This document shows, in pieces, positions 4,904 through 53,867 of a stretch of DNA of 64,000 nt. Under the pieces are notes generated by a model. It saw only the letters and a program-made list of their open reading frames with translations. It did not search any database and had not been told where the DNA came from. Position 1 is the first letter of the stretch, and the number at the start of each line of letters is the position of its first letter. The translations under genes and the position numbers were made by a program. Source of the DNA: a virus. The DNA lies in the IMG/VR virus record IMGVR_UViG_3300031687_000001, positions 32,001 to 96,000 of that record; one strand, written 5' to 3'.

Positions 4904-4932
4904 ATTATAGCAACATGTCTTACTATTGTCAA
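4904..4932 (-). promoter_or_regulatory. Sigma70-type early promoter
   Basis: Perfect TTGACA-N17-TATAAT on the minus strand. Confidence 0.85.
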
Positions 4933-29400: not shown

Positions 29401-32067
29401 GTTTGCAAGTTCTGCTGCGCGAGATGTTACTGCTTCTGCTGCTACTGCGTCAGTTAGAACAAGTTCTGCTGCACGTGCTGTAGTTGCTTCTGCTGCTACT
29501 GCGTCAGTTAGAACACCTTCTGCTGCACGTGCTGTAGTTGCTTCAGTTGAGATCGCTGTTACGTTAGATGCGATATCTGATGCGTTAGTTGCGATATCTG
29601 AATCATTTGCTGCGATATCTGATGCGTTAGTTGCTACTGCTGTTGTAAGAACACCTTCTGCTGCTATTGCACGAGTTTCTTCGTCTGATACTGCTGTTGC
29701 GTTTACACCTTCTGCTGTTGTTGCACGTGTAACTTCTGCTGCTACTGCGTCAGTTAGAACACCTTCTGCTGTTACTGCACGAGTTTCTTCATCTGAGATT
29801 GCAGTTGCGTTTGCAGATTCTGCTGCTCTTGCGATGCCTGCTTCGGTGATGATTGCTGATGCGTTAATTGCGATATTGCCAACGTTAGTTGAGATTGCAG
29901 TGTCATGTGCGTTGTCTTTATCTGTTGCACGAGATACTTCGTTTGAAATAGATGTTGCATTTGCAAGTTCTGCTGCACGGGCTGCTGATGCTTCTGCTGC
30001 TAAACCATTAGTTAGAACAAGTTCTGCTGCTGTTGCACGTGTAACTTCTGCTGCTAAGTTAGTAGTTAAAGTTAAATCTGCCGCTGCGCGATCGGTTGCT
30101 TCTTGTGAAATATCTGATGCGTTAGTTACGATATCAGATTGTGCAGTTTCCATGTCGCCTTCAAGTGCTGTTGCACGCAAAGATAATGCGTCATCTGCTG
30201 CGTCTGATGTAACTGCACGAGCTACGTCTTTTGCTTCTGCTGATGCAATTGCATCTGCTTCTGCTGCGTCTGCTTTAGTTGTTGCATCTGTACTTGCTGT
30301 TGCAATTGCACCTGCTTCTGCTGCGTCTGCTTTAGTAGTCGCGTCTGCTGATGCTGTTGCTGCACGTACTACGTCTTTTGCTTCTGCTGCTAATAGTGCT
30401 GCGTCTGCCTTAGATGTTGCGTCTGCTGATGCTGTTGCAACTGATGCTGAATCACCTGCGATACGGTTAGCAACTTCTGTTGAATCTGCTGTCTGCAATG
30501 CTGCGATTTCGCCGCCTGTAGTTGCAATTTCTTCATTCAATGCTGTTGTGATCAAACCTTCAGAAATACCTACTTCTGTACGGATCAATGCACGATCAGT
30601 TGCTGCTGCGTTGATTGCTGCTGTGTGAGCAGAATCAGCTGTTTCAAATGCTGAAACAATCTCAGTCAATGAATCAAGTGCTGCTGCGTCTGTGTTGCTG
30701 ATAATGTTAGCAATTGCTGATGCGTTAGATGCAATATCTGCTTCTGCATCTGTTACACGAACTTCTACTGCATTTGTGTCAGTGTGTAGTTCGTTGATAC
30801 CGCCTGCAAATGTTTGCGCGATTGTATCTAGTGGATCAGTACCGTTGCCTTCTTCTAGTAATGTTAGACGTGATTCTGCATCGTCCATTTCAGTTTCTAG
30901 GGTAGTTGCACGACCATCTAGTGCTGTGTCAGCTGCGTCTGATGTAACTGCACGAGCTACGTCTTTTGCTTCTGCTGATGCAATTGCATCTGCTTCTGCT
31001 GTGTCTGCTTTTGAAGTTGCGTCTGCTGCTGCTGTTGCAATTGCGTCTGCTTCTGCTGTATCTGCATAACCCTGTAGTGCTGTAGTTTGTAGTGCGTCTG
31101 CTGCTGCAAATTCTGAACGTACTGCTGTGTCTGCGTTTGCACGAGCTGTCATTTCGTCAGAAATAGAGTCTGCGTTTGCAAGTTCTGCTGCACGGGCTGT
31201 AGATGCTTCAGTTGAGATCGCTGTTGTTAGAGTAGTAACATCAGCGTTTGTTGCTGAGATTTCTGCTGCCAAACCTGAAGTCAATGTAACAATATCACCT
31301 TCGTTTGCTGTTACACGTGCGTCAAGATCGTTGTCGCCCGCGATGCGTGCTGCTGTCTCAGTTGATACTGCTGATGTAAGAACACCTTCAGCTGCTTGTG
31401 CGCGAGAAATTTCTGCTGCTATATCATCAGCGTTAACACCTTCTGCTGCTGTTGCACGTACCACTTCATTTGAGATAGCAGTTGCGTTAGCCGTGATAGA
31501 TGCTGACAATGCACTATCTGATGACTGAAATTCTGCAACAATTTCTGCTAATGAATCCAATGCTGCTGGATCAACGTTAGCGAGGATGTTTGTTATTTGT
31601 GTTTGCAATGCCAAATCAGCTGATTGATAAGCTGTTTCGATTGCATTCTCACGTGTTGTTGCACGAGTTGCTTCTGCTGAAATATCGCCTGCGAGTACGA
31701 TTTCTGCTGCTAATGCGCGTTCTGCTTCTGCTGAAATATCGCCTGCGTTTGCAAGTTCTGCTGCACGAGCGATCTGTGCTTCTGCTGCTACTGCATTTGA
31801 AATATCAGTTGCTACTGCTGCCTGTGCACGGGCGTCAGTAAAGTACTTGTTAGTACCTTCTGCTAAATCATTAGTTGAATATGAACCGATAAGGTCTGCT
31901 GCTGTTACTTTGCGCAATGATGCGTCCGACGCGCTGTGTAATAAGAAGGTGTCTAGCGATGCTACCGACTCAGAACCAGTTTGACCTGATACTGATGATG
32001 CTGCTAATTTGCCTACTACTACTGCTGCGTTCGCTAATGCGGGTGCTTTAATCTGTCTAAAAGCCAT
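26482..32067 (-). CDS. Very long coiled-coil fibre/structural protein, 1861 aa
   Basis: Many AEATTARAAELANA repeats, repeated ALDSLTEIV modules, LYFTDARA motifs, late promoter TATAAATA at 32142-49. Confidence 0.8.
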   Translation of the reverse strand: MAFRQIKAPALANAAVVVGKLAASSVSGQTGSESVASLDTFLLHSASDASLRKVTAADLIGSYSTNDLAEGTNKYFTDARAQAAVATDISNAVAAEAQIARAAELANAGDISAEAERALAAEIVLAGDISAEATRATTRENAIETAYQSADLALQTQITNILANVDPAALDSLAEIVAEFQSSDSALSASITANATAISNEVVRATAAEGVNADDIAAEISRAQAAEGVLTSAVSTETAARIAGDNDLDARVTANEGDIVTLTSGLAAEISATNADVTTLTTAISTEASTARAAELANADSISDEMTARANADTAVRSEFAAADALQTTALQGYADTAEADAIATAAADATSKADTAEADAIASAEAKDVARAVTSDAADTALDGRATTLETEMDDAESRLTLLEEGNGTDPLDTIAQTFAGGINELHTDTNAVEVRVTDAEADIASNASAIANIISNTDAAALDSLTEIVSAFETADSAHTAAINAAATDRALIRTEVGISEGLITTALNEEIATTGGEIAALQTADSTEVANRIAGDSASVATASADATSKADAALLAAEAKDVVRAATASADATTKADAAEAGAIATASTDATTKADAAEADAIASAEAKDVARAVTSDAADDALSLRATALEGDMETAQSDIVTNASDISQEATDRAAADLTLTTNLAAEVTRATAAELVLTNGLAAEASAARAAELANATSISNEVSRATDKDNAHDTAISTNVGNIAINASAIITEAGIARAAESANATAISDEETRAVTAEGVLTDAVAAEVTRATTAEGVNATAVSDEETRAIAAEGVLTTAVATNASDIAANDSDIATNASDIASNVTAISTEATTARAAEGVLTDAVAAEATTARAAELVLTDAVAAEAVTSRAAELANATAISDEETRATGIESGLRTDVDANLASINSIISNTDPDALDSLTEIVTAFQDADSDINGAITALAATASTDRAAIRTEFASADGVLTTNLATEVSRAVAAEGVLTSAVAAEAVTSRAAELANANAISAEATTARAAELANATAISTEASTARAAESANATAISTEESRAVAAEGVLTTAVASNATAISTEASTARAAESANATAISDEETRAIAAEGVLTTAVASNASAIAANVTDIAANVTDIATNETAIAAEAVTARAAELANVNAISAEATTARAAELVLTDAVAAEAVTSRAAEGVNAAAAATNATAISDEEIRATLDATTKANEAQVAAIASAEAKDVARAVTSDAADVAEAATRLANDNTLQDNINAEAVTSRAAELANANAISAEATTARAAELANAAVSAANLVEMTSTQSGAGLATDGTYVAPTTSNFHDTATSLADADMKIDAAVKAEEVARIAADSTLTSNLAAEATTARAAELANAGNITAEATRAANAELVNANAISGVADDLVTEAATRLADDTTLQGNIDSLTATVNNVISNTDAAALDSLTEIVSAFQDADTDLTTLVTGNATAISDEEVRALAAEGALSSALSTEVDDRIAGDSAATTDRGAIRSEFATADTTLQSNIDTKLALSGGTMTGNVAMSGGLVTGLGTATLPGDAVSKAVLDAAISAQDMSLYTTDDLTEGSSLYFTDARARAALSVVDTAGNGLAAYDSATGVITIDTNESVLDLTDVSDVDYTGKAEYVLAVKQDLSGMELVDPLTIFVSNGRQTIAGDGVATTYALTIDASQAQAMVFVGGVIQDPSTHYTIDDSASTITFVSAIPTDTQVVVVSPQAGLDPVLIDGQVTSEKLAGNIKAFTQGIDVSAGTSGNVVDTFDGTAHRSAKYVIQVSDSVSGEYETREALVIHDGTSAYITEFAMVYTGASLIGDASVAMNGTNVELTYTTDSVTASVKVISTYIDV

Positions 32068-47118: not shown

Positions 47119-47949
47119 ATGAGTAACAATCCTTTATTGAAAGCGTATAAAATACCATCAATGTACATAAGTCTACCTTCTGGTGGACAATACTATACCG
47201 AAAAGCCTAAATTAAGTGCTGACGGTGAATTGGCAATCTACCCAATGACAGCAAGAGATGAAATAATCTCAAAGACACCAGATGCGTTATTTAACGGAGA
47301 AGCAACGATTGCGTTACTTTCCTCGTGTTGTCCAGATATCACTGATCCTAAGTCAACGCCTGTTAATGATTTAATGGTTCTTCTACTTGCAATACGCAAA
47401 GCAAGTTATGGGGATGGAATAGATATCGATATTAAATGTCCGTCTTGTGGCGAACTTAATATGCTTGAAATGGATATTAACAGAATTCTAGGATCTGTTA
47501 AGGCGATAGATGTATCAAATAATTTGATTCTGCAAGATAAATTCAATGTTAAATTGAAACCATATAATGTGAATGATAGAACATTAATTCAGATACAGCA
47601 AATTCAACAAGAGAGAATGATACAAGAACTCGCTAATACTGAATTATCTGATGCTGAAAGAAATGAAAAATTTGGAAAAACATTTGTAGAAATATCAACA
47701 CTGACAATTGATCTTATGGTTAATTGTATCGTATCTGTTACCTACGATGATAATGAAATAACTGATATAGAAACTATTCGTGAATGGTTGCACAATATTT
47801 CAAAAAGCGATTATAAAGATATGAAAGATCATATTGAAAAGATATCCGATAACGGTATCGATACCAAATTTAAAGCAGTATGTCAATCGTGTTCGCATGA
47901 ATGGGAATCTGAGGTAGAACTCGATATGTCAAATTTTTTCGCAGGCTGA
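47119..47949 (+). CDS. Baseplate hub/tail assembly chaperone gp26-like
   Basis: LPSGG, MTARDE, TPDALFNG, two CxxC pairs, NFF end; start at ATG 47119 after GGAG. Confidence 0.8.
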   Translation: MSNNPLLKAYKIPSMYISLPSGGQYYTEKPKLSADGELAIYPMTARDEIISKTPDALFNGEATIALLSSCCPDITDPKSTPVNDLMVLLLAIRKASYGDGIDIDIKCPSCGELNMLEMDINRILGSVKAIDVSNNLILQDKFNVKLKPYNVNDRTLIQIQQIQQERMIQELANTELSDAERNEKFGKTFVEISTLTIDLMVNCIVSVTYDDNEITDIETIREWLHNISKSDYKDMKDHIEKISDNGIDTKFKAVCQSCSHEWESEVELDMSNFFAG

Positions 47950-48146
47950 TAGCAACAAGTCAGCCGCACGAAATTCCTGATATACTTGACAGATACCAAG
48001 ATGATCTAACTAAGTTAAATTCAAATCATATGGATATTCTTATCATGTCACATGGTGCAATGACATACGAATCATTGATGACAATGCCAGTGCCCATGAT
48101 AGACTTGTTCATCAAACGATACAACGAGAGGAATAGTGAATCTTAA
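47934..48146 (+). CDS. -1 frameshift extension of the gp26-like gene (gp51/T-like segment)
   Basis: Slippery T TTT TTC at 47934-40; the -1 frame is open for 68 codons to TAA 48146. Confidence 0.65.
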   Translation, partial: FFRRLIATSQPHEIPDILDRYQDDLTKLNSNHMDILIMSHGAMTYESLMTMPVPMIDLFIKRYNERNSES

Positions 48147-48631
48147 TCGTTCACTATTTCGTCGTAATACTCTTGTGTCCATGAATCATAGTAGTTCGTT
48201 TTAATAAGTTTTTTACGACGATCTTCTATGTCTTCTTTTATCTGTACAATAATAATACGAGTAAAGTTCTTAACGAATAATCCACTCAATTCAGTACTTA
48301 CAAAATAATGATGTTCTGGATATAACGCACGCATTTCCGATGTGATGCTATCTAGTACATCTATATCACAATCATCTCCCATCCAACAAACAGCCATTTT
48401 AAACTGACTCTTATCAAATGTCTCTAATGCAGACTTTGAATAACTCAAATCTCTACCATCCATGAATTGAATTTCGCCATTGACTCTTGCTTTACGAGCA
48501 TAAGGACAAACAGGCCAACCATCGCCTTTATCTTGTTCAATCACATCCATAGTAAACTTAATAAAATCATTCTTAAATGATTCAAACTCTATTGCTTTTG
48601 GTGATCTTTCTTTTAGTGACATTGTACTCAT
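48143..48631 (-). CDS. Hypothetical protein with CPYA motif (DUF1415-like)
   Basis: GWPVCPYARKAR; AGGAG RBS; TATAAATA at 48653-60. Confidence 0.6.
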   Translation of the reverse strand: MSTMSLKERSPKAIEFESFKNDFIKFTMDVIEQDKGDGWPVCPYARKARVNGEIQFMDGRDLSYSKSALETFDKSQFKMAVCWMGDDCDIDVLDSITSEMRALYPEHHYFVSTELSGLFVKNFTRIIIVQIKEDIEDRRKKLIKTNYYDSWTQEYYDEIVND

Positions 48632-48859
48632 AGAACTCCTTAATTATATATATATTTATATGAACAACATATCTTGGTTCAAGGAACAACATAATAATGT
48701 AATCACATAAACATTGCTTCGCAATGAACAACTTCAAAAAATATCTCATTCGTTACACTCATTCGTATTTTTCTTATTGTTATACTCTTTAATCTAATTG
48801 TTTCTAACTGTTATTACTATATATCAATGATTGGGCTATTCTATAACTACTATCTATTT

Positions 48860-49378
48860 TTCCAGGATCTTGATCCACACTTCGCTTATGCAGCGAAAGT
48901 GAAAAATTTGTTAAATGAACAGAAAGTTTTTTCCTATCACCCAATCACACTTCGATATAACAAACCCAATTTTACACTTGGGGGAGGCGGTTACGCGGTA
49001 CCTCTTATTACATGCTGCTTCAAGCAACGCAAGAACATCAATTTCCATATCGTCGGATTTTGACTACTCGTAGGTTTCAATAGTTCAGAAGAGCCTACTC
49101 TTTTCGGTTGGTCAGACCAGTGCAATGACCAAAAGAAACACGTGGAAGTCCATCGACATCGCCCCAAAGGCGGCAGATTCATCACGGATACGGTAACAGT
49201 ATCATCCATCTAAGTTTTATAGGGTTCTGAGGGGGTTTGCCAATGCGAGGTGATTAAGTTTTTAGTTTAAGTGCTGAGGACAGCGAAGTGATTGAGTTTT
49301 TTAGTTTAGAGGTTTGTTTAAGTTTTTAGTTTAAGTGTGTTTGTTTAAGTTTTTAGTTTAAGTGTGTTTGTTTATGTA
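48860..49378 (-). ncRNA. Putative large structured non-coding RNA or origin primer transcript
   Basis: Own consensus promoter, no credible ORF, dense hairpins, more GC-rich than flanks; boundaries approximate. Confidence 0.55.
49250..49374. repeat. 27-bp direct repeats plus degenerate copies
   Basis: GTTTGTTTAAGTTTTTAGTTTAAGTGT at 49312-38 and 49339-65 plus a partial; core AGTTTTTAGTTTA also near 49257 and 49296. Confidence 0.85.
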
Positions 49379-49381
49379 ATA

Positions 49382-49409
49382 ATTATACATGATTCTCAGT
49401 GATTGTCAA
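49382..49409 (-). promoter_or_regulatory. Sigma70-type promoter for the non-coding locus
   Basis: TTGACA-N16-TATAAT on the minus strand. Confidence 0.8.
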
Positions 49410-49417
49410 GTATAATT

Positions 49418-49876
49418 TTATAAGCCCGAGGATTTAGTTTCTTGTAGGTATTCTTTAAGAACTTTTGATCCGCCTACTCTAACGTTAATGATTCCATTGT
49501 AGTAATCATCTGTTTCAAGTACTCTGCGTTCAAACTGTTCGCGTGCTTCTAGGTAACTTGCAATGCCCCTTGTAGGACACATATGAATAATTTCTCTTGT
49601 GAAACTATCTTTACCTAGTGCTTCAACGTCTGCATTAAGTCTATCACTAGAGCCGAAATATTCTCTCCAGTCACTTTCTTTAGTGCCACGTCTCTTATTC
49701 TTTTTTCCCTTTAGTGGTGGTTTAGTAGTTTTAAACTTTGCTAATTTTTTACCTATATATAACATACCACTAACAGTATTTGTTATCAGATACACAAATG
49801 CTTCACACCCATCCGGCAATGCTTCTATAACATTACCTTCGTATGTCCAGTCATATGTAATTTTATTTTTTTCCAC
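49418..49876 (-). CDS. Stand-alone GIY-YIG nuclease (Seg-like catalytic domain), 152 aa
   Basis: FVYLITN...YIGKK, WREYFGSS, YLEAREQ, YYN motifs. Confidence 0.8.
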   Translation of the reverse strand: MEKNKITYDWTYEGNVIEALPDGCEAFVYLITNTVSGMLYIGKKLAKFKTTKPPLKGKKNKRRGTKESDWREYFGSSDRLNADVEALGKDSFTREIIHMCPTRGIASYLEAREQFERRVLETDDYYNGIINVRVGGSKVLKEYLQETKSSGL

Positions 49877-50087
49877 TAACGGCTCTTATTAATTTTTGTA
49901 GAATATCAGCACCAATACTTTGGGTGATTTCCTCGCTCTGTAGGTTTGATTTATAAACCCATAAAGTATTATCCTCATCTCCAGCCAGATCAACATCGAA
50001 CTGACTTGGATGAGTGGCATTGCCTGTTATTACAGGTTGTTTATCAATGCCAATCTTTTTTTTAGGTTTTGGTATATTATGTATCAA
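49863..50087 (-). CDS. Hypothetical protein, 74 aa
   Basis: Overlaps both neighbours within the operon. Confidence 0.55.
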   Translation of the reverse strand: MIHNIPKPKKKIGIDKQPVITGNATHPSQFDVDLAGDEDNTLWVYKSNLQSEEITQSIGADILQKLIRAVSGKK

Positions 50088-51849
50088 TTACTTCCATCTC
50101 TGTGTTAAATGTAGTGAATCCGTTCTCTTTCGTAACTTGTAATACACTATTAACACGACCAATCAATTCATCTCTGTGAGAGATAAGTAGAATATCTTTA
50201 TTACGTTCACGCTCCATTTTCTTTAAAGCAGTTAACGCACTTTCAACACCTACACTATCCATTCCTGAATCAATCAATTCGTCAATACACATTAAGTTGA
50301 TAGCAGAATTCATACTCTCGTATACATCTCTAAATGCCCAACTCAATCCTAGAATTAAACGATTGCGTTCACCCCTAGATAAATTGTCAAAATCTAAATC
50401 TTGTCCTAATTGTACAATACTCACAGACAAGTCACTCTGAAATTTAACTTCATGTGGTAGTCCTAGTTGTGTAATATAATGATCTAGACGAACATTAAGG
50501 AACTGTAGATTTTGTTCAATGATACGCTTACGAATAAACGAGTCTTTGTTTGTTAATAGTTTTAATAAAAAATCCTGATGATCTTTGATATCGGTTAAAC
50601 GATTAAGTTCTTCCCAATCAACTGTTTGTAACCCAGTATCTTTTAATGTATCAATTTGTTCTTGATACGGATCTGATTCCGTTGTCTTCCGTTCAATAGA
50701 TGCGATGGTATTAGACAACTTATTCTGATGTTCATATGCTTCTTGTGCGGTATTATAAAACAATTTAGGTGCAACGCCTAAATCACCTATGTTATTTAGT
50801 TCATTGGTATATGCTTCAATAGTAGCAACATCTATCTCTATCTGTTCTTTATATTCAGCAACCGCCAATGTTTTAGTTTCAAGAATCTGTTCATGTTTTT
50901 CATCATGAATCTCTTGTCCACATGCGTAACATTTGTGTTCCATTGATGCATCTAAATCTTCAACTGCTTTGATGAGGCGTTTATTTTCACGCTCAACTGT
51001 AGTTGTTAATTTAGCAATATCCTTGGTGTAAGCATTAAATTTATTTTTTCTTGCTGTGTATGCTTCAAATGCAATGTGTGCTTCCAATTCAATTTCTACA
51101 TCGATCTCGTATAGCGCCATTAAATCTGACTCAAGATCTGTAATAGATTCTTCATTGGTTCTATGCCATAGACGTTGTCTACGTTCTAAATCTTTGATAC
51201 TTGCATTAAATCTCTCATTCGCATCTTCAACTGCGCGAACACGATAATTTTCTTCTTGTATTTTATCTTTACCTGTTCTGATAAGTTCTTTAAGTAATTC
51301 TGCTTTATCAGATAATTGAGTAATACCTAACAGTTGTTCGATTAACTCGCGCTGATCATTGGCACGCATACTCAAGAATGGTTCAGTGTATGTATTTAGG
51401 GCGATAATATGCTTGAACATTGTGTGAGTCATACCAATGACTTTTTCAATAGCAACTTGTGTCAAGCGACCTTCGCCTTGACCTTCGTCTGTCATGTCAC
51501 TATTATCTACTTCATTTACGTAGAATTTAAAAACATTAGGACTACGTCCACGTTCAATGCGATATTGCGCACCGTTCTTTTCAAAATCAACTGTAACAGT
51601 CATGTGTTTGTTGTTGATCTTATTGATAAGATTTGATTTTTTAATATTAAATAATGCACTACCAAATAGTGCATATGAGATTGCGTTAATAAGAGTAGTT
51701 TTGCCTACTCCATTACGAGAACCATCACCACCCATATCAACATTATTGCCGAGTACTAGAGTTAGTCCAGTTTCATTTATGGTAACGGCTTGAGTGACGT
51801 TACCAACAGAAAGAAAGTTTTTAATAGTTACATTTTTAATAGTTAGCAT
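50077..51849 (-). CDS. gp46: Recombination ATPase gp46 (Rad50/SbcC-like)
   Basis: KNFLS, NGVGKTT Walker A, CYAC zinc hook, LSRGE signature, IDE Walker B. Confidence 0.95.
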   Translation of the reverse strand: MLTIKNVTIKNFLSVGNVTQAVTINETGLTLVLGNNVDMGGDGSRNGVGKTTLINAISYALFGSALFNIKKSNLINKINNKHMTVTVDFEKNGAQYRIERGRSPNVFKFYVNEVDNSDMTDEGQGEGRLTQVAIEKVIGMTHTMFKHIIALNTYTEPFLSMRANDQRELIEQLLGITQLSDKAELLKELIRTGKDKIQEENYRVRAVEDANERFNASIKDLERRQRLWHRTNEESITDLESDLMALYEIDVEIELEAHIAFEAYTARKNKFNAYTKDIAKLTTTVERENKRLIKAVEDLDASMEHKCYACGQEIHDEKHEQILETKTLAVAEYKEQIEIDVATIEAYTNELNNIGDLGVAPKLFYNTAQEAYEHQNKLSNTIASIERKTTESDPYQEQIDTLKDTGLQTVDWEELNRLTDIKDHQDFLLKLLTNKDSFIRKRIIEQNLQFLNVRLDHYITQLGLPHEVKFQSDLSVSIVQLGQDLDFDNLSRGERNRLILGLSWAFRDVYESMNSAINLMCIDELIDSGMDSVGVESALTALKKMERERNKDILLISHRDELIGRVNSVLQVTKENGFTTFNTEMEVIDT

Positions 51850-51852
51850 AGT

Positions 51853-52884
51853 TTATATGTGTAAGTCGTTATAAATTGAAATTAAAGTTTCGTTACGAAT
51901 AGAATTAGATGTAATTGCACCAAGTTGAGTAAGAACAATTTGGTCAACATTTTCTACTGATATATCTCCATCCGTATCCCAGTCTTCGCCAGATACATTG
52001 TCCTTCTTAGACGGCATTAGCGATATTTCACGTAAATCATAATCGGCAGCAAATGTTTCTTTAATATAATTTGCTTCTTCATATGAAATATTGATATCTA
52101 ATATTATACGACAATGTGTGTTATTTGTCAATATACTACCAGCATCATCTAATAGTTGACTCAAGTTTGCTACGCGATACTTAGGTGCATCTTTCCATGT
52201 TTTAAAGTCGTATGTGCCATCCCAGTTTAGGAAAGTGATACCACGATCATCATCCCATGCATCTGAATAGTTATGTGGGAAACAGTTTCCTGGATAGATG
52301 ATATTACCTTTTTCCTGACGTTTATGGAAATGACCAGAAAATACTTTATCTGCTTTAGATAAGTCTGATGCTTTTAATCCACCGTGATCGGGCATTTTAA
52401 TCATAGCATTCAGGTAAAAGTCTGGTAATTCAAAGTGACCGAAAATAAACTTAGACTTTAATTCCTTCAACTTCTTCCATTCATCATCAACTAACCATGG
52501 GACAAATGCAACACCATCTTCTTCAAAGATTTCATCATTGATGATGTTGATGTTAGGATATTTATTTGCAAATGGTAGTGAGTTGATATCTCGTTTTTCA
52601 CGATAATACAGATCATGATTTCCCATGATCATATGTACTTCGTCGAAATTATCATTCAGTATCTGTAACGCATCAACTGTGTAATTTAAAGTACCCACAT
52701 TGATAGTCGCTCTGTGATGATGCCAGTCACCCAAGAAGAAACATTTTTTAATGTTCCTACTATGGGCTTCTTCTATCATCCATTTAATAAAGTTAAGACA
52801 ATCATTGTTATGCATCTTGGAATTATTTTTAAGTCCAAAATGTATATCTGTGAAAATTACTGCTTCATCAAAAAATTTACTCAT
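51853..52884 (-). CDS. gp47: Recombination nuclease gp47 (Mre11/SbcD-like)
   Basis: DIHFG, GDWHH, GNHD, GHF, SGHFH motifs. Confidence 0.95.
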   Translation of the reverse strand: MSKFFDEAVIFTDIHFGLKNNSKMHNNDCLNFIKWMIEEAHSRNIKKCFFLGDWHHHRATINVGTLNYTVDALQILNDNFDEVHMIMGNHDLYYREKRDINSLPFANKYPNINIINDEIFEEDGVAFVPWLVDDEWKKLKELKSKFIFGHFELPDFYLNAMIKMPDHGGLKASDLSKADKVFSGHFHKRQEKGNIIYPGNCFPHNYSDAWDDDRGITFLNWDGTYDFKTWKDAPKYRVANLSQLLDDAGSILTNNTHCRIILDINISYEEANYIKETFAADYDLREISLMPSKKDNVSGEDWDTDGDISVENVDQIVLTQLGAITSNSIRNETLISIYNDLHI

Positions 52885-53838: not shown

Positions 53839-53867
53839 ATTATATATCAGTTTGATCAGTTTGTCAA
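53839..53867 (-). promoter_or_regulatory. Sigma70-type promoter for the gp55-gp47-gp46 operon
   Basis: Perfect TTGACA-N17-TATAAT. Confidence 0.85.

Follow-up and report, generated by a model that had tools for sequence, protein, structure and literature searches.

In phage T4, the free-standing GIY-YIG nuclease SegB is encoded in a tRNA cluster and targets a motif inside the neighboring tRNA genes, which leads to preferred inheritance (PMC2330249). In phage T6, SegB drives the segmental amplification of tRNA and other anti-defense genes, and segB homologues are significantly colocalized with tRNA genes across phages (PMC13096335). Here we describe a comparable arrangement in a 64,000-nucleotide (nt) stretch of viral DNA (the window; positions 32,001 to 96,000 of IMG/VR record IMGVR_UViG_3300031687_000001), which is part of the 149-kilobase (kb) record of an uncultured, marine, T4-like phage. 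Read along the minus strand, the locus consists of gp47, gp46, an open reading frame (ORF) of 74 amino acids (aa), a GIY-YIG nuclease gene, a 786-nt gap, a gene that we call ORF162, and then a convergent baseplate gene. Judging from its sequence, the undescribed element in the gap, which is neither an intron nor coding, is very probably an RNA gene. We go further, with about even confidence, in reading the stretch from ~49375 to ~48705 on the minus strand as a separate, early gene for a noncoding RNA (ncRNA) of ~0.6 to 0.7 kb that would be the cargo of a free-standing homing endonuclease.

As with SegB in T4 and T6, this locus places a free-standing GIY-YIG gene of the Seg type directly beside an ncRNA gene in a T4-like phage, the gene for the nuclease exceeds its surroundings in conservation and mobility, and the RNA cargo varies among related phages. 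Unlike the cargo of SegB, however, the RNA here is ~0.6 kb long, belongs to no known family, and is not a tRNA, and the nuclease, with 152 aa, is a catalytic domain of the Pfam SegE type. We favor an RNA gene because the element has an early-type promoter and a terminator-like hairpin, matches no Rfam family, and contains a conserved body, and because the linkage between RNA and nuclease is real in relatives.

We use type W for the window's RNA and its relatives, and body for the 532 nt from 49243 to 48712 on the minus strand. Together, the conserved promoter, variable leader, constrained body, and hairpin listed here give the element the anatomy of a discrete gene of ~670 nt.

49382-49409, minus strand: sigma-70-type early promoter, TTGACA-N16-TATAAT, agreeing with the consensus at 12 of 12 positions and lying 8 nt after the nuclease stop codon
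49244-49375, minus strand: hypervariable A/C-rich leader of 27-nt tandem units, from composition and repeat finding
48860-49243, minus strand: conserved core of the body, 43% G+C, 97.4 to 98.2% identical to relatives L004 and L006 (flanking genes, ~89%)
49187-49203, minus strand: hairpin GAUAC-UGUUACC-GUAUC; no other stem has a compensatory change
48954-48946 and 48884-48876, minus strand: two copies of CGAAGUGUG, flanking CACUUUCG at 48901-48894, from reading the sequence
48712-48859, minus strand: 3' part of the body, A/T-rich yet conserved, with a terminator-like hairpin at its end
48726-48712, minus strand: this terminator-like hairpin, CAUUGC-GAA-GCAAUG followed by UUUAU, from a terminator scan

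The body is the best-conserved DNA of its neighborhood. The same gap occurs on five to six contigs (L004, L005, L006, L084, and L322 to L326, plus the truncated L002 and L003). Compared with L004 and L006, the 532-nt body shows 12 to 15 differences (2.3 to 2.8%), whereas the flanking genes differ by 8.5 to 12% (48 to 57 differences per ~460 to 490 nt; Fisher p of 1e-7 to 1e-9). By codon position, the flanking genes diverge by 4 to 7% at first, 3.2 to 3.9% at second, and 18 to 24% at third positions, and the divergence of the body is thus lower than that of second codon positions and ~8 times lower than that of third positions. Since this low divergence holds across 532 nt, neither an ordinary coding sequence nor a neutrally decaying pseudogene fits. 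Conservation breaks off just past the hairpin at 48726-48712, where the relatives have an 11-nt insertion or deletion (indel) and then many changes. An earlier note on this DNA, made from the letters alone, had described the core as richer in G+C. This is true relative to its local surroundings, with peaks of 47 to 49%, but values of 45 to 47% are reached elsewhere in the window.

Transcription is predicted to start near 49375, from a site (49409-49382) that looks like one of the early promoters of this phage. Perfect TTGACA/TATAAT sites with a spacer of 16 or 17 nt occur four times in the window, all on the minus strand, compared with an expectation of 0.26, and the site in front of the leader is preserved as TTGACA-N16-TATACT in all type W relatives. 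The three further sites, each TTGACA-N17-TATAAT on the minus strand (4904-4932, 52103-52131, and 53839-53867), share the strand of the early genes and are likely early promoters as well; one of them falls within gp47.

The longest ORF in 48632-49417 is at most 78 aa, leaving about 750 nt without a credible ORF, and the ORFs in this interval have no Pfam match and no ribosome-binding site. A blastn search of the gap against 50,697 phage records returned no match, and ARAGORN found no tRNA or tmRNA. Searches of 47500-50500 and 48640-49420 with Rfam 15 cmscan at E values up to 10, which covered families including group I intron, HEARO (RF02033), GOLLD, ROOL, OLE, raiA, 6S, RNase P, and tmRNA, gave only chance-level matches (a CRISPR direct repeat, snoRNAs, and a 17-nt DUF805b fragment), and Rfam at permissive thresholds had no match on the loci of nine relatives. 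In T4-like phages, group I introns with GIY-YIG genes of the I-TevI type are a precedent for a structured RNA that moves with such a gene. Here, however, no host gene is interrupted (gp46 is complete, and loci vary in their downstream genes), a 0.8-kb query matches no group I model at an E value of 10, and the nuclease gene lies outside the RNA. The promoter and the absence of credible ORFs described in the earlier note are therefore as it had stated, it was right that the element is not an ordinary intron, and its central proposal of an undescribed ncRNA is very probably correct, given that the element is noncoding, has its own early-type promoter and a constrained body, and is matched by none of the described families that the note had named for an Rfam scan (group I intron, ROOL, GOLLD, and HEARO).

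The almost G-free, A/C-rich repeat leader that the note had seen is likewise real. No G occurs in the initial 86 nt of the predicted transcript (A50, C20, U16), and Tandem Repeats Finder reports a period of 27 with 2.9 copies and 94% matches at 49298-49374. Because they are G free, the leader repeats are unable to form G-C pairs. The 27-nt unit has no occurrence elsewhere in the 149-kb record. In relatives, the leader is only 46 to 56% identical, with entire 27-nt units gained or lost, and its copy number differs even from that of L322, whose ORF162 protein is 100% identical. An anti-Shine-Dalgarno-like AAUCACCUC in the leader was considered and dropped, as the relatives lack it. Many contigs stop 0 to 250 nt past the nuclease gene (L002, L003, L010, L012, L013, L019, L021, L033, L042, L047, L048, L075, and L077), L002 and L003 within the repeat leader itself, and this pattern suggests population-level variation or assembly-breaking repeats behind the nuclease.

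The earlier note had also suggested that a large RNA is linked to this nuclease family, and when the sequences downstream of its orthologues were collected, this linkage proved to be real, in the form of an RNA that we call type M. A different ORF-free sequence of ~450 to 600 nt is shared downstream of the nuclease in 53 of the first 80 loci. Classed by blastn to representatives, the RNAs at 165 nuclease loci comprised 128 of type M, 8 of type K, 5 of type J, and 5 of type W, with 16 loci having none of these. For the type M RNA (~450 nt; examples are L078:4487-5000 and L017:4412-4900, with about 130 other loci; alignments A2 and A3), RNAalifold gave 59 pairs, 21 of them with compensatory changes, along with a pseudoknot-like long-range pairing; this RNA is not in Rfam. 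A pattern scan for an invariant M stretch found at least 120 stretches, and a GIY-YIG gene is adjacent in 57 of 57 M loci with enough flank, being upstream of the RNA in 55. The order is reversed in L089 and L124, where a diverged M RNA (L124:5180-6164 and L089:2219-2911; covariance model R1, E values of 1e-18 to 1e-19) precedes a GIY-YIG gene of 47% identity, in a podophage-like context with a podophage GP4-type fiber-tail adaptor in the genome. Given the reversed order and the podophage-like setting, the RNA-nuclease pair has moved between phage types and changed its gene order. The invariant M stretch is also present in three contigs from metagenome-assembled genomes (L329, L330, and L331; 72 to 335 kb, labeled Crocinitomicaceae and Neomarinimicrobiota), which are probably of phage origin, one measuring 335 kb, and were placed in bacterial bins.

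Covariance model R1, built on the 3' domain of M, weakly recognizes types K and J (E values of 0.02 to 0.5). Both types share the M 3' architecture, in which a box, a hairpin unit of ~58 nt, an identical box, and a terminator hairpin follow one another. The two 8-nt M boxes, ~58 nt apart and flanking the conserved hairpin unit, match each other exactly in 89 of 91 loci, across four variants. They read ACAUGAAG in most M RNAs (e.g., L017:4700-4770), while the K boxes are ACAUGAUG/ACAUGAUA (e.g., L054:4690-4760) and the J boxes AUAUGAUG or ACUUGAUG (e.g., L045:4745-4830). Neither mutual information, the signal of which is confounded by phylogeny, nor a search for complements and extra copies within several kb revealed a convincing third strand for the ACAUGAAG boxes. 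The M, K, and J RNAs end in terminators, often followed by convergent genes. J RNAs open with an A/C-rich, G-poor leader of CACAGGCA/CAAGGCAC-kind repeats of variable copy number (the first ~100 nt after the nuclease stop in L045, L049, L050, and L060; L071:5000-5100), which parallels the leader in the window in layout but not in sequence.

Type W occupies the same slot as these RNAs (gp47-gp46-small ORF-GIY-YIG-RNA), directly downstream of the nuclease and in the same orientation, and it too ends in a hairpin; a promoter of this kind also follows the nuclease stop directly in some M/K/J copies. Even so, W has no detectable homology to them in sequence or structure. Profiles of M, K, and J had no nhmmer match in the window gap, and model R1, run with filters off, had no match on W or on L004/L006. 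Local alignments of W with M/K/J, calibrated by shuffling, had z scores of -0.7 to 1.3 with one exception; a high-scoring alignment to the type J RNA of L050 was discarded as an A/T-rich low-complexity match. The repeat-hairpin-repeat-terminator module at the 3' end of M/K/J is absent from W, and W's own 9-nt repeat pair is unlike the boxes, since its copies are 70 nt apart, have another sequence, and are not followed by a U-tract. A few short words are common to W and M/K/J (AUGUCGAYG after a hairpin and GGCAAAC at the start of the body), and a ACCGCCUCC hairpin is common to W and type K; the shared words may be due to chance. On this evidence, W, which is rare, would be either a replacement of the M/K/J RNA or a relative that has diverged beyond recognition.

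The genes on either side of the W RNA are as follows.

51853-52884, minus strand: gp47
50077-51849, minus strand: gp46, a complete gene
49418-49876, minus strand: free-standing SegE-type GIY-YIG nuclease, 152 aa, catalytic domain only, from Pfam and PHROGs
48653-48660, minus strand: T4-type late-promoter motif TATAAATA, kept in relatives; ORF162 starts 22 nt downstream
48143-48631, minus strand: ORF162, 162 aa, with weak matches to DUF6217 and PHROG 10325 only

Pfam PF19835 (SegE_GIY-YIG) matches residues 10 to 130 of the 152 nuclease residues (E value of 1.5e-32), so that there is no space for a C-terminal DNA-binding module, as the earlier note had thought. The protein also matches PHROG 447 and homing-endonuclease PHROGs, a PDB sequence search with it gave no match, and its nearest cultured relative is found in Methylophilales phage Melnitz (66% identity). 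We confirmed 576 nuclease relatives. Synteny of gp47, gp46, and the GIY-YIG gene is kept at most of their loci, and the nuclease is 72 to 82% identical at loci where gp46 is only ~53% identical; being better conserved than gp46, the nuclease gene behaves as expected for a mobile gene. Close homologues are also found outside the gp46 context, in the L030 group, behind nrdB in Melnitz, and in the podophage-like genome L124. The nuclease is thus a free-standing GIY-YIG gene that is more conserved than its flanks and occurs in varying contexts, as expected for a cargo endonuclease of the SegB-tRNA type. The gp46 protein itself resembles jumbo-phage SbcC-like proteins (46 to 48% identity). The 74-aa ORF between gp46 and the nuclease (49877-50087) shows the weakest conservation of all coding-like stretches at the locus, with 69% nt identity compared with ~90% around it. 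If the nuclease has a polymorphic target or immunity site, this ORF just upstream of it could be the place.

We compared the RNA types with a maximum-likelihood tree (quick search; 75 nucleases, 148 columns, support by the Shimodaira-Hasegawa-like approximate likelihood ratio test [SH-aLRT], with the M-linked nucleases thinned to 48 rows). The W-linked nucleases form one clade (SH-aLRT of 99) inside a supported set (97) that also contains M-linked and RNA-less nucleases, the RNA-less group sitting in another genomic context, and M-linked nucleases fall on both sides of the branch that contains W. This nesting indicates that M was exchanged for W, or the RNA lost, while the protein changed little. 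Overall, the nuclease stays 72 to 91% identical while the RNA type (M, K, J, or W) swaps or disappears, and the cultured homologues in Melnitz, P-HM1, and B23 have neither an adjacent RNA nor a large gap after the gene. Such switching is hard to reconcile with an obligate ribonucleoprotein (RNP) or a guide RNA and argues against both, whereas an association at the DNA level would fit.

In viral and metagenome collections, ORF162 has only four to five relatives, each of them preceded by the W sequence, and since it is confined to type W loci, it is coinherited with the W RNA. When ORF162 was used to seek more type W homologues in these collections, only the same four to five near-identical lineages were recovered, and a 15-mer scan of viral contigs for type W gave only chance matches and already known contigs. 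A type W 22-mer was absent from 185,579 prokaryote genomes, which gives no hint that W came from a host. As a toxin or defense gene, ORF162 has no match in Pfam, PADLOC, or a protein atlas, and PHROGs offered only families of unknown function. In type III toxin-antitoxin systems, 34- to 45-nt pseudoknot repeats (ToxI) are followed by a ToxN/AbiQ toxin. Unlike these, the repeats here are 27 nt long and G free, a 530-nt body intervenes, and ORF162 lacks a ToxN match. The TATAAATA motif occurs in eight copies in the window (23869, 26369, 32142, 32201, 33226, 35074, 47098, and 48653), a total that is not above chance; all are on the minus strand, several of them just before structural (fiber and tail) genes, which is consistent with T4-type late promoters.

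If our preferred reading of an early RNA gene is correct, host RNA polymerase would transcribe the W RNA early in infection, the body would fold into a multi-hairpin domain, and the leader would stay single stranded as a landing pad. The RNA may then serve as a trans-acting decoy or sponge for a factor of the host or the phage, perhaps to counter host defense. Its link to the nuclease would be at the DNA level, where, by analogy with SegB, homing drive would carry along and may amplify the neighboring RNA gene, and the W RNA would be neither a guide nor an obligate protein partner.

Several points weigh against this reading. The core has 11 perfect 5-bp hairpins compared with 6.9 ± 3.2 in shuffles, 65 of 500 of which reach 11, and the minimum free energy z scores are -1.16 (minus strand) and -1.10 (plus strand) for the core and -0.6 for the entire gap. 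By these measures, the structural part of the observation is not beyond chance. Each stem in the run listed by the earlier note is indeed present at its place, but their number and folding energy lie within those of shuffled sequences, and the TCTTTT/GAAAAGA extension that the note had drawn for one helix is lost in relatives. The structural conservation in relatives that the note had expected is weakly borne out for W, by one covarying pair among five near-identical sequences. In the hairpin at 49187-49203, 49203 G>A is accompanied by 49187 C>U in all four other lineages, changing G-C to A-U, while L003 is altered in the loop. The core has ~10 variable sites, and apart from the compensatory pair, three changes lie in hairpin loops and the rest are unpaired or tolerant of G-U pairing. 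The near-total conservation of 532 nt could instead reflect recent transfer of the segment between lineages, the promoter could equally serve the downstream ORF162, and both the trans decoy role and the homing activity are argued from analogy.

The early promoter might indeed drive ORF162, with the 750 nt between them serving as a long 5' leader or attenuator that controls read-through at the hairpin 48726-48712; we consider this unlikely. The promoter and ORF162 are on the same strand with no gene between them, W and ORF162 always co-occur, and a terminator-like hairpin precedes ORF162. In addition, an alternative pairing is possible in which the duplicated CGAAGUGUG boxes, 70 nt apart, could compete as a switch for the CACUUUCG between them, which is complementary to both, although a 9-nt direct repeat within 380 nt has a chance expectation of ~1 in 4 by our own estimate, which makes the CGAAGUGUG duplication weak evidence. 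However, ORF162 has its own late-promoter motif, like the structural genes, and conservation drops sharply between the hairpin and ORF162. A fully conserved leader of 530 nt would also be unusual, and in M/K/J loci, where the RNA in the slot ends in terminators and convergent genes often come next, that RNA is not a leader. It is harder still to credit one or more hidden small protein genes or a decayed gene remnant, which we regard as extremely improbable. One candidate for such a gene is a 45-aa ORF (48911-49048) that is open in all five sequences and in which two of three substitutions are synonymous, but neither it nor its neighbors have a family match or a ribosome-binding site of the AAGGAG type that genes here use, 1-nt indels in relatives throw a 72-aa ORF out of frame, and divergence over the 532 nt stays under that of second codon positions. 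Whatever probability the readings discussed here leave over goes to recent horizontal transfer of a sequence with some other function.

The earlier note had proposed that the RNA could partner the nuclease as an RNP. In this reading, the RNA would supply target recognition or scaffolding by analogy with the omega-RNAs of IscB and TnpB, an idea that we find very unlikely. A nuclease without a DNA-binding module could use such a partner, the adjacency of M-type RNA and nuclease is near universal and survives changes of gene order and phage type, and the M/K/J boxes, which change in concert, need a common partner. As in the OMEGA systems, including HEARO, a large RNA is encoded immediately beside a small nuclease in a mobile context. 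The nuclease fold here, however, is GIY-YIG and not RuvC/HNH, we found no hypervariable, guide-like segment with a match to a target, there is no third copy of the box nearby, and, in place of coinheritance and coevolution of RNA and nuclease, the analysis showed the RNA swapped or lost within one nuclease clade, without detectable similarity to M/K/J by profile or covariance model, and missing beside the cultured homologues. The same swapping and loss tell against the note's other proposal, a replication primer RNA processed by the nuclease. There is a slim chance that the nuclease uses exchangeable RNAs, tethered by a short shared element, for example the hairpin and AUGUCGAYG common to W and M, with the rest of the RNA programming the target or regulating cutting; a nuclease that used the slot RNAs in this way would be the first RNA-dependent GIY-YIG nuclease. 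We give similarly little credence to a DNA element, in which an R-loop-primed origin of the T4 type would start from the early promoter, with iteron-like 27-nt repeats and an A/T-rich region at 48640-48860. Like oriF, oriG, and oriE of T4, the noncoding gap combines a strong promoter, direct repeats, and an A/T-rich stretch (25% G+C, downstream), and it lies at a module boundary beside the recombination genes gp46 and gp47. Yet, unlike functional iterons, the repeats show the least conservation of any part and differ in copy number between relatives, and what is conserved is the G+C-richer core instead of the A/T-rich part. R-loops are stabilized by G-rich RNA, the opposite of a G-free leader. 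The cumulative GC-skew minimum is also 3 to 4 kb away, at 52 to 54 kb, where gene orientation changes, and the equivalent slot in relatives holds a covarying RNA.

If the W RNA is transcribed, it would be a new large phage ncRNA under unusually strong sequence constraint, and, together with M, K, and J, it would make the place behind a widespread homing-type nuclease of marine phages a dedicated, exchangeable slot for RNA genes. The natural RNA swaps at this slot provide a concrete set for probing RNA function, and the evidence sets bounds on the idea of an RNA-guided GIY-YIG enzyme by speaking against it. If our reading is true, the SegB-tRNA principle, in which an RNA cargo is spread or amplified by a neighboring nuclease and is possibly directed against defense, would extend to large structured RNAs in abundant ocean phages.

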